A stretch of DNA of 64,000 nucleotides, taken from a virus (Duplodnaviria > Heunggongvirae > Uroviricota > Caudoviricetes). The first letter of the stretch is position 1; each line of letters begins with the position of its first letter. The DNA lies in the IMG/VR virus record IMGVR_UViG_2579778842_000017, positions 5,703-69,702 of that record; one strand, given 5' to 3'. The notes under the pieces are model-generated. The model made no database searches, was not told where the DNA came from, and was given only the letters and a program-made list of their open reading frames with translations. The translations under genes and the position numbers were made by a program. Below are positions 23,163-25,556 of this stretch, one piece after another.

Positions 23163-25556
23163 TCATACGTCCGCCCCTTGTGCATATCGTCTGCCACGCG
23201 CAGCAGGCGCATTTGATGCTGTGCAAATCTGTCTGGCTTCATCCTGGTCACATGCAACAAAGTGTCCGTTGCAGAACCGCTGGTAAACCGTACCAAGTGA
23301 GCCAAAACGGTTTTTCGTCACGATGATTTCAGCAAATGGCGCGGCGCTACTGTTCTCGTCATATACCGCTTCCCGATAGAGCATGATGATTGAGTCTGCG
23401 TCCTGCTCAATGCTTCCTGAATCACGCAAATCTGCGTTTGTCGGGCGTTTGTTTGGTCGCTTCTCAACATCGCGCGAAAGCTGACTTAGGGAGATAACAG
23501 GCGTTTTCAAGTCTTTCGCCATCGCCTTCAGGCTTCCTGAGATGTGAGCAATTGCGAGGTCGTTGCGGTCTGCTTTCGGCTTCTCAATCAGGCCAAGATA
23601 ATCCGCCATGATGAGTGAGAGGTTTGGATTTTCCTGTTTGTGCCGTTCTGCGATTGAGCGTATTTCTTCGACCGATAACCGCGAGGCATCGACTACCCAT
23701 ACATCCAAATCCGCTAGCTGACTCATGCCGTTAGCAACACGTGCCCAGCCCTCGTCATCCATCGATGCAGGATTTCGCAGTACGCTAACCGACATCCTCC
23801 CGGCGTTGGCAATGCTTCGCTCTGCAATCTGCAATGCGCTCATTTCCATTGAGAAAATCAATACCCCGCGCCGGACGTCAGAACCAGGAATAACGCGGCT
23901 TGCAACGCCTTCGGCAATCTTCAGCGCCAGTTCCGTATTGTGCGTAACGATGTAATCCGTTGTCACATAGAGATGGCTAGGATGGCTTACCATGATGCAG
24001 AGACACTCTTCTGGCTCAACAACTTCAACCGATTTGATACCCACACCAAGGTCGCCAAGCCTGTTAATCCCGAGATTTTTGCGTAAACGTGGTGAGTGAA
24101 TTTGCTCTATCAAAGATGATGGCAACTTCATGCTGACCATGTGTGCATCAAGTCCGTCGTGCTTCTCTCCTTTGTACGTGTAAACTATTCCCGTCCTGCT
24201 GGATTCTTTGGCGGTTCCACCTAAAGATCTAACAAGCCTTACTAATCCTTTAGCTAATTTCTGACTGGATGAACTAAAGCGGATGCATCCGGACTTCTCA
24301 ACCCAGCCATCTGTCTCGAGAAGGCCAGTTAAAACACCGGTACGTATTTCTTTGCTAGCACTAAAAATTTCTGCTGGGATTTCCTTCTCGGACGCACCTT
24401 TCCCGATCACCCCAATGCCACGTAGTTTGTCCAATAGTGGGTTCTTCTGGCCTTTTTGGTTGCTTATCAAATAATCATTCTCTCCTACCTTAACCAGTCG
24501 CAATGGTGCAATTGCATCACTCATGCGGCTCAGGACATATTCTTCCGAGTTGGTGAATTTGATGCCTTTTATCAACGAACCGTCACCAAGTAGAGCCCCA
24601 ATAACCCAACCATCAAGGGGAATATTTTTACCAAAGTCTCCGGTCAAGGATGGCACTCTTATTCTTCCCTGATAACGTGTTTTTTGTAGCATCCCAGCCA
24701 GCGCATCAGTATCAACAACGCGTTTACCAGTAAATCTTGATGATGAAATTTCCCATAAGTGGTTGTCGGCACATTTCACGCTACGTCCGTCTTCAAAGGT
24801 GACTAAATATGTGAATTTCTTCCCTTGTGGGAAGACGCCAATTACCTCCGAAGGAAGCCCGTCTATTGACGCGATGCGATCGCCAATTTTGACTTCTCCG
24901 TGAGTAGTCCAGGTGCCATCTGCAAGTAAAATCCCTTCGCTTAGCGCCATTGCTTTCCCCATACCAGGACGAGCAGCGATTATCACCAGGTCTTCCGCGT
25001 TCATCCCTCCGGTGATGGCATCAAGTTCTTCGATTCCGGTCTTCAGGGTATCGGACTCTTCTCCGTTCCTCAGACGCCTGTCAAGCGTGTCAGTGTAGTC
25101 AGTAATGATTTCCCCTAACCGTACAGGTTTTACCTCGTCACGGGGCTTTCTGATAGCTGAGAGACGTTTTACAAGTTCATCCATCGCCTGACTCGATGCG
25201 TCGATGGTTCCGCTCTGAATTGGTTCACGCATTTCATCCATGATTTCCAGCACCAGACGGCGGTGATAGTTATCCGCGACCATTCCGGCATATCCCTTCA
25301 GGTTTGCGGCACTCGGGCAGTTTTTGCTGGTCATCAGGATTGACGTGAAATGCTCCTCTCCGCACGCCTCGGCAACCATCAGCGCATCGATTAGGTTTCT
25401 GTTTCTCGCCTGCTTGCGGATAACCTCGAAGGCTTTCCGGTAGAGCGGAATTGAAAACGCTTCCGGCTCCAGCGTTGCCAGAACGTCGCTGGCGGTTGGT
25501 GTTAATCCACCAATCAGCAGGCCACCGATAACGCTCGCTTCGATATCCTGTCTCAT
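23163..25556 (-). CDS. replicative DnaB-type helicase interrupted by an intein
   Basis: 797 aa versus about 460 aa for phage DnaB; Walker A ARPGMGK is split from [10 protein letters not shown] by about 339 aa carrying two LAGLIDADG motifs. Confidence 0.8.
23937..24953 (-). other. intein with LAGLIDADG homing endonuclease domain inside the helicase P-loop
   Basis: Residues about 202-540: begins [13 protein letters not shown] after GMGK, ends IVTHN before Thr+1; motifs [10 protein letters not shown] and [11 protein letters not shown]. Confidence 0.6.

Follow-up and report, generated by a model that had tools for sequence, protein, structure and literature searches.

Class 3 inteins are defined by the absence of Cys, Ser or Thr at position 1, by three co-varying residues, Trp at B:12, Cys at F:4 and Thr at G:5 (together termed WCT), and by Thr or Ser at the +1 position (PMC2807308). 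The Cys residue at F:4 is the obligate first nucleophile of this class (PMC2807308; PMC3196547). Here we describe an insert that splits the gene for a DnaB-type helicase in a 64,000-nucleotide (nt) stretch of DNA from a Caudoviricetes virus (IMG/VR record IMGVR_UViG_2579778842_000017, positions 5,703 to 69,702), the whole of which is referred to below as the window. We read the insert, with a probability of about 0.87, as a mobile two-domain class 3 intein residing in the Walker A GK/T site ('DnaB-b') of a P22/lambda-like prophage helicase, where the slash denotes the point of insertion. Its anatomy, its signature residues and their conservation, its fold, its presence/absence polymorphism and a population signature of recent spread were all observed.

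The GK/T junction of the Walker A motif is a 'classic' P-loop insertion site of inteins (PMC5050341). In DnaB this position, site b, holds the class 3 mycobacterial intein DnaBi1, whose +1 Ser is also the Mg2+-coordinating residue of the P-loop (PMC6195587). Class 3 splicing of mycobacterial DnaB inteins has been shown by experiment (PMC5222942; PMC6195587), and the roles of the catalytic residues in Msm DnaBi1 have been described (PMC6195587). The window intein lies in the same host family and between the same Lys and Ser/Thr residues as mycobacterial DnaB intein 1 (Msm DnaBi1, Mle DnaBi and Mch DnaB1; structures 6bs8 and 6rix). The two share Ala1, His65 and Trp67 at identical numbering, the block F Cys and the terminal Thr-His-Asn, and are related with E values of 5e-7 to 1.6e-6 and roughly 25% identity over the HINT lobes. 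Among homologues that have been studied by experiment, the mycobacterial DnaBi1 mini-inteins are the nearest to the window intein. The mycobacterial elements are mini-inteins of 139-145 amino acids that carry no endonuclease and reside in chromosomal dnaB, whereas the window intein has 339 amino acids, carries a LAGLIDADG domain and resides in a prophage helicase. The N-terminus reads AMALS in the window and ALALD in Msm DnaBi1, the latter sequence coming from the cloning primer (PMC7664689). The +1 residue is Thr in the window and Ser in Msm DnaBi1, and Asp62 of the Msm block B is represented by Asp63 and Asn64.

Two phage-borne inteins are also close in kind. The class 3 prototype, the MP-Be DnaB intein of mycobacteriophage Bethlehem, for which the splicing mechanism was worked out biochemically (PMC2807308), resembles the window intein in its phage DnaB host, its length (341 versus 339 amino acids), its lack of an N-terminal nucleophile, its WCT residues and its Thr+1, as judged from its published description. 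It differs in carrying Pro1 rather than Ala1 and in its N-extein junction (VSQDQ/). The nearest distinct relative, with 50% amino acid identity over the full length, is the intein of the primase-helicase 'P' of phages phi24B, Min27 and Stx2a_F451. The Stx2a_F451 intein has the same two domains, Ala1, DHLW, ECLCIMV and THN/T, and likewise occupies a Walker A GK/T site (NGHGK/TEVV), but its host is a toprim/gp4-like primase-helicase that is not orthologous to the DnaB-type helicase of the window. Because the two inteins are only 52% identical in nucleotide sequence, their split is old, and the same value rules out a recent transfer between these two E. coli prophage inteins. The phi24B P protein has been reported to contain an intein at residues 372-702, with an orthologue in Min27, its function being untested and no class being assigned (PMC3430580). 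Apart from that report, our literature search, which did not extend to the supplementary class 3 lists of 2010-2011, returned no description of an intein in a DnaB-type helicase of this kind. The window intein is apparently an undescribed member of a well-known kind.

Anatomy, class 3 residues and fold

An earlier note on this DNA, made from the sequence alone, proposed a LAGLIDADG intein of about 339 amino acids, possibly of class 3, within the Walker A motif of a prophage DnaB-type helicase encoded by a 797-codon open reading frame. Both the reading frame and the limits of the insert proved exact (Table 1): the N-extein ends at residue 201, the C-extein starts at residue 541, and precisely 339 residues intervene between Lys and Thr of ARPGMGK/T. 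Removal of the insert restores the Walker A sequence GMGKT, and ten intein-free alleles carry the same uninterrupted junction, reading GGGAAA/ACC GAA at the insertion point. When the exteins were aligned to intein-free helicases, which the note had named as a way to check its proposal, they were found to be colinear to the base, with empty sites in 688 E. coli genomes. The 1017-nt insert has no terminal bases in common with either flank, and therefore the position of the junction cannot be shifted. As the empty-site alleles fix the boundary, Ala at position 1 is certain. The intein has a foreign composition, with 45.8% G+C compared with 52.7% in the exteins, and 44% compared with 55% at third codon positions.

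The identity of the host protein is evident from the domains on either side of the insert. The Pfam DnaB (N-terminal domain) model matches upstream (E = 8.9e-13) and DnaB_C matches downstream, from residue 540 (E = 3.7e-71), while the NCBIfam DnaB and phage_DnaB models both align across the gap. The assignment to a prophage helicase likewise stands, as the gene lies in a lambdoid replication module. The computed masses are 87.0 kDa for the full precursor, 50.1 kDa for the spliced helicase and 36.9 kDa for the intein.

Every residue that defines class 3 in the published scheme is present in the window intein, namely Ala1, Trp67, Cys319, Thr337 and Thr+1, and the suggestion of class 3 membership was thereby strengthened. 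Block B reads Asp63-Asn64-His65-Leu66-Trp67 and block F reads Glu316-Cys317-Leu318-Cys319-Ile-Met-Val, so that the motifs DNHLW and ECLCIMV, the Thr before the terminal His-Asn and the Thr that follows it are all where the note had placed them. A database search yielded 87 relatives, and conservation was counted over the 39 that were aligned with the window intein. The signature positions are essentially invariant in these homologues: His65, Trp67 and Cys319 are each kept in 39/39, and Thr337, His338 and Asn339 each in 38/38. Position 1 is occupied by Ala in 34/37, and at +1 there are 35 sequences with Thr and two with Ser. The endonuclease residues Asp124 and Asp215 are retained in 39-40 of 40 sequences.

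Pairwise HMMER alignment with the Mch DnaB1 structure (6rix) pairs His65 with His65, Trp67 with Trp67, Cys319 with Cys124, and Thr337-His-Asn with Thr143-His-Asn, and the aligned residues of MchDnaB1 are its catalytic triad plus the Trp (PMC7664689). The signature residues also pair one to one with those of the solved class 3 intein 6bs8. Cys319 also aligns with the introduced Cys107 of the engineered gp41-1_WCT intein (6riz), and the Thr-His-Asn terminus coincides with the termini of both structures. The earlier note had singled out a late Cys within ECLCIMV. A Cys of that motif does appear to be the catalytic one, but it is the second, Cys319 (F:4), rather than Cys317 (F:2), which is not conserved.

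Metagenomic relatives (P0006-P0083) with 30-43% identity occupy at least three insertion sites, namely DnaB GK/T, PhoH GK/T and a PhoH RGR/T motif. Nearly all of them begin with AQPLDS and carry an invariant WCT triplet. As far as their sequences tell, these relatives are a large class 3 clade that is mostly unannotated.

The two LAGLIDADG-like motifs that the earlier note had mentioned, LLGDG and LLETDG, are confirmed by Pfam models that exceed their gathering scores in the middle of the insert: LAGLIDADG_3 (E = 1.3e-6; score 29.0 versus a cut-off of 22.5) and Hom_end (21.8 versus 21.1). The insert is also matched by NCBIfam NF005852, a model of intein-containing mycobacterial DnaB (E = 8.2e-10). 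When the insert was compared with sequences in the PDB, the best matches to intein chains (down to E = 1e-9) were the gp41-1 intein, PI-SceI and the DnaB inteins 6rix, 6riy and 6bs8, with the endonuclease core matching residues 280-370 of PI-SceI.

An AlphaFold2 model of the intein, built on 40 homologues, has a mean pLDDT of 95.9 and a pTM of 0.93. In a Foldseek search with this model the top match was PI-SceI (TM score 0.74, E = 8.5e-19), with the Tli and Pho VMA inteins and PI-PfuI ranking next; I-DmoI was also among the structural matches. The HINT lobe matches the class 3 DnaB mini-inteins 6bs8 and 6rix with TM scores of 0.76-0.80, normalised to the target. PI-SceI (yeast VMA1) is thus the best structural match to the whole protein, but it differs in being a class 1 intein (Cys1) of about 454 amino acids with an extra DNA-recognition region, and in residing in another host gene of a eukaryote. 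Taken together, the insert has the HINT fold with blocks A, B, F and G, a terminal His-Asn and a +1 nucleophile, and its removal leaves a colinear host protein. Its endonuclease domain has the two helices of a double-motif LAGLIDADG protein, set in an alpha-beta-beta-alpha-beta-beta-alpha core, and each of these helices closes with a catalytic acidic residue.

Table 1. Coordinates of the helicase gene, the intein and related features (window positions, except for the last row)
Feature	Position	Strand	Remarks
Intein-containing DnaB-type helicase gene, complete	23163..25556	minus	797 codons + stop; open reading frame list, Pfam, NCBIfam
N-extein, residues 1-201, ending in Walker A ARPGMGK	24954..25556	minus	colinear with intein-free alleles
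Intein, 339 amino acids, Ala1 to Asn339	23937..24953	minus	1017 nt; presence/absence polymorphism exact
Ala1 codon, no N-terminal nucleophile	24951..24953	minus	Ala in 34/37 homologues
Block B His65-Leu66-Trp67 (B:10 to B:12)	24753..24761	minus	Trp67 is the W of WCT
LAGLIDADG homing-endonuclease domain, about intein residues 105-295	24069..24641	minus	Pfam, PI-SceI match, Foldseek
LAGLIDADG motif 1, LLGDG, residues 121-125	24579..24593	minus	Asp124
LAGLIDADG motif 2, LLETDG, residues 211-216	24306..24323	minus	Asp215
Cys319 codon (F:4)	23997..23999	minus	predicted initiating nucleophile; C of WCT
Block G Thr337-His338-Asn339 (G:5 to G:7)	23937..23945	minus	Thr337 is the T of WCT; Asn339 predicted to cyclise
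Thr+1 codon	23934..23936	minus	Walker A Thr and +1 nucleophile in one
C-extein, residues 541-797 + stop	23163..23936	minus	starts at Thr+1
O-like replication gene	25553..26374		upstream of helicase
Stx2a_F451 gp36 primase-helicase with class 3 intein	L002 1888-4794

Distribution, diversity and annotation of the intein

We surveyed 5,426 complete E. coli genomes, using the gene spliced in silico (1377 nt) as the query for empty sites. This query matches a contiguous gene annotated as 'replicative DNA helicase' in 688 genomes, with 96-98.6% nucleotide identity and coverage of at least 80%. DNA of the intein is present in 30 genomes, 24 of which contain the full-length intein-bearing gene. These counts agree with the view expressed in the earlier note that inteins are uncommon in enterobacterial prophage replication genes, but they are not without precedent there, as the relative of the Stx2a_F451 type is found in 79 genomes and the two inteins together reach about 2% of the collection. 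A further 51 phage records contain intein DNA, namely the O103:H25 phage TL-2011a and the Stx2a phages of O121 and O157:H7. The exact 797-residue protein has been deposited as 'DNA helicase [Escherichia coli]' and is represented on 38 contigs, and 797-residue members of the helicase cluster occur in Salmonella enterica as well. The 90%-identity cluster of the helicase also contains 217-residue 'DUF6246 family' proteins of Salmonella and Citrobacter, which looks like an oddity of clustering rather than biology. In the intein-bearing helicase allele of E. coli ET734 (L014 2733-3332), the C-extein is truncated by an IS66-family insertion.

To measure diversity, 13 intein-bearing alleles were compared with ten intein-free alleles. 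The intein of the occupied alleles has a nucleotide diversity of 0.0044, whereas their N- and C-exteins reach 0.027 and 0.020, respectively; diversity is thus about 5- to 6-fold lower in the intein than in the exteins that flank it. The exteins of intein-free alleles are at the same level as those of occupied ones (0.030 and 0.022, respectively). Third codon positions give the same picture: 10 of the 339 such sites in the intein segregate, whereas 93 of 458 do so in the exteins (Fisher p = 1.6e-14). The inteins of three alleles, obtained from chicken, human-blood and dog isolates, are identical, while the exteins around them show a total of 26-39 differences (12-14 in the N-extein and 17-25 in the C-extein). 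The window allele and that of an O121 Stx2a prophage differ at 13 of 603 positions in the N-extein and 11 of 774 in the C-extein, but at only 1 of 1017 in the intein. In O157:H7, one allele with the intein and one allele without it have identical N-exteins.

Low diversity of the intein and the occurrence of identical inteins in divergent exteins therefore argue for recent horizontal spread, most likely by homing. All 13 alleles have an uninterrupted 797-codon frame and keep every catalytic residue, and the 17 variable sites of the intein comprise 11 synonymous changes and six conservative replacements. These observations indicate that the arrival of the intein in this helicase lineage was recent and that it has since passed from allele to allele while being held under purifying selection, as would be predicted for homing. 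Only one nucleotide position consistently separates occupied from empty alleles: in the Thr+1 codon, the third base (window position 23934, +3) differs, the codon being ACG in 13/13 occupied and ACC in 10/10 empty alleles. This difference could be a mark of co-conversion or a change that affects recognition by the endonuclease.

The intein-bearing allele is also carried by phages that encode Shiga toxin. In the genome of the laboratory E. coli strain WG5::TT12A (NZ_CP072566, L025), a Stx2a prophage resides at wrbA; WG5 is a standard phage-indicator strain. Its only helicase is the intein-bearing allele, located beside an O-like initiator, and stx2a lies about 7 kb downstream of the helicase. 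Induction with mitomycin C raises the excised copy number of prophages specific to TT12A (PMC11052207).

The gene is misread by automated annotation. In every genome inspected, PGAP/RefSeq breaks it into two or three 'incomplete' pseudogene pieces, or into an N-terminal pseudogene and a coding sequence that starts inside the intein. Equivalents of the complete window gene that are split in this manner include L001 3398-5791, L003-L014 and L025 14001-16394, and the Stx2a prophages of O121:H19 and O157:H7 are among those affected. There are no frameshifts or stop codons, and the split is therefore an artefact of annotation, for which weak generic intein models are probably the reason. In RefSeq the gene for the intein-bearing primase-helicase is a single coding sequence, whereas the helicase gene described here is represented by fragments.

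With regard to its surroundings, the helicase gene begins over the stop codon of the O-like gene in a four-base ATGA overlap (window positions 25553..25556), which suggests translational coupling of initiator and helicase. Genes resembling lar, ninB and a methyltransferase follow the helicase. The phages closest to the surrounding 24 kb are the P22-like phages IME10, CUS-3, HK544 and Sf6, and on sequence grounds the helicase belongs to the replication module of a P22/Sf6/CUS-3-like lambdoid prophage. The window contains no match to the start of stx2A; this result and the P22-like best matches rule out that the window prophage is the O121 Stx2a phage, despite the 99.9% identity of their inteins. 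Small antisense reading frames within the helicase region were taken as chance occurrences. Related prophages differ in whether they possess free-standing NUMOD4/HNH endonuclease genes, which lie downstream of the helicase at a distance of a few genes (L001 7279-7881, L025 16739-17350 and the 3′ end of L008), and the corresponding window interval, 22888..23163, contains no such gene. In the nin region these genes thus form a second layer of polymorphism in selfish endonucleases, independent of the first.

Predicted splicing and competing explanations

From the residues described above we infer the splicing chemistry, splicing in vivo and the activity of the endonuclease. Translation of the gene would yield an 87-kDa precursor that should bind ATP poorly, because the intein splits the P-loop. 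Cys319, placed by His65, Trp67 and Thr337, is predicted to attack the peptide bond between Lys(-1) and Ala1, and the N-extein would thereby be moved onto Cys319 as a thioester branch before being handed over to the hydroxyl of Thr+1. Cyclisation of Asn339, helped by His338, would then free the 36.9-kDa intein, and an O-to-N acyl shift would regenerate ARPGMGKTELAL in the active 50.1-kDa helicase. The LAGLIDADG endonuclease, with Asp124 and Asp215, would cut the empty site of intein-free alleles, and repair of the cut would copy the intein into them in the process known as homing.

Several results weigh against this interpretation. The Pfam model Hom_end_hint reaches only 18.6 bits against a cut-off of 32.1, and neither Pfam Intein_splicing nor the NCBIfam models of N- and C-terminal splicing regions are among the matches of the insert. 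The profile searches that the earlier note had called for therefore succeeded with the two endonuclease models and NF005852 but not with generic models of the splicing domain. The residues before His65 are Ala62, Asp63 and Asn64; at position 64, 34 of 39 relatives carry Glu or Asp, whereas the Asp of the window intein is at position 63 instead. Acidic residues in block B affect the reaction at the N-terminal junction in other class 3 inteins (PMC6195587), and Asn64 could weaken activation of this junction. Ordinary recombination among phages after one recent insertion, with no active endonuclease, could give the same population pattern. Finally, that WG5::TT12A is a lysogen made with a TT12A phage is inferred solely from the name of the strain. 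We do not hold the missing generic matches against the intein, because the alignments to solved structures, the conservation within the family and the fold agree; the failure is a shortcoming of those models for this clade.

Among competing explanations, the one that survives best accepts splicing but holds that the endonuclease is inactive and that the intein spreads only through general homologous recombination between co-resident lambdoid prophages. We consider this possible, if unlikely. Lambdoid phages are highly mosaic, and the mycobacterial homologues at the same site have lost their endonuclease domain (PMC6195587). Moreover, recombination of the ordinary kind would fit the intein-bearing alleles, in which variable sites approach the junction to -9 and +12 nt, so that there is no sign of a long co-conversion tract. 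The endonuclease domain itself does not look abandoned, however. Neither its two catalytic Asp residues nor its two LAGLIDADG helices are disrupted, and all of them are conserved; the domain is modelled with high confidence, and across the 13 alleles it has accumulated only five replacement and six synonymous changes. The one position that sets occupied alleles apart from empty ones throughout, +3, falls inside the expected target site.

It is very improbable that the insert is a decayed relic incapable of splicing, which would make the helicase a pseudogene and leave the prophage to use host DnaB or to be unable to replicate. The calling of incomplete fragments by PGAP in every genome examined would fit such decay, as would Asn64 in block B, and there is a precedent in the non-functional class 3-like intein Arth_1007 of a prophage remnant in Arthrobacter FB24 (PMC3196547). 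The Arthrobacter intein, however, had lost the Cys at F:4, whereas Cys319 is kept here. The frame and catalytic residues are intact in 13/13 alleles, 11 of the 17 substitutions in the intein are synonymous, and the fragmented calls are explained by protein models that do not span the intein in a gene free of frameshifts and stops. The allele is, in addition, carried by Stx2a phages of several lineages and by WG5::TT12A.

That a functional intein splices by another route, either with direct attack by Thr+1 as in class 2 KlbA inteins, which likewise begin with Ala1, or with Cys61 (B:6; conserved in 24/39) or Cys317 (16/40) near the active-site blocks as the nucleophile, is scarcely credible, since class 2 inteins have no WCT triplet whereas the window intein has all three residues and sits in a family where they are invariant, and since Cys319 alone is invariant and alone aligns with the residues that experiments have defined as nucleophiles, Cys124 in MchDnaB1 and Cys118 in Msm DnaBi1. 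Cys317 is ruled out by its poor conservation and by its failure to align with the known nucleophile.

Implications for Stx2a phages and for intein biology in E. coli

Phages of the P22 type need their own DnaB-type helicase (gp12) to replicate. The presence in WG5 of a Stx2a prophage whose only helicase has a split Walker A motif suggests that the phage is transmissible. If this phage likewise needs its own helicase, its transmission would imply that splicing of the class 3 intein works. Because the intein allele is the sole replicative helicase of the WG5::TT12A prophage and because Stx2a phages from O121:H19 and O103:H25 strains have it too, splicing is likely to be an obligatory step in replication of these toxin phages and a possible control point.

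A further proposal, which we regard as improbable, is that the intein acts as a conditional switch on prophage replication, with oxidants or zinc reversibly blocking splicing and thus holding the helicase as an inactive precursor. Such sensitivity is conceivable because the predicted nucleophile is Cys319, with Cys317 on the same strand and Cys61 of block B nearby. A reversible block of splicing by oxidants and zinc has been shown for mycobacterial DnaBi1 (PMC6195587; PMC7360933). If the proposal were true, phage amplification and the dosage of the Shiga toxin gene would be tied to the redox state that prevails in the gut or within phagocytes for Stx2a phages of O121:H19, O157:H7 and O103:H25.

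The fragmentary annotation of this gene would mislead analyses of prophage integrity and of pangenomes. For the study of inteins more generally, the points of interest are that the element is native to E. coli, that it is carried by Stx2a phages and that population data speak for its continuing mobility. The 24 occupied and 688 empty genomes, together with the very low diversity of the intein, provide a rare natural data set on an ongoing intein invasion. E. coli, the host in which intein biochemistry is routinely carried out as a standard, is usually regarded as free of inteins. Prophages of E. coli and Salmonella contain a native class 3 intein whose endonuclease domain is intact, and splicing, homing and conditional regulation could thus be examined in the natural host with full genetics at hand.

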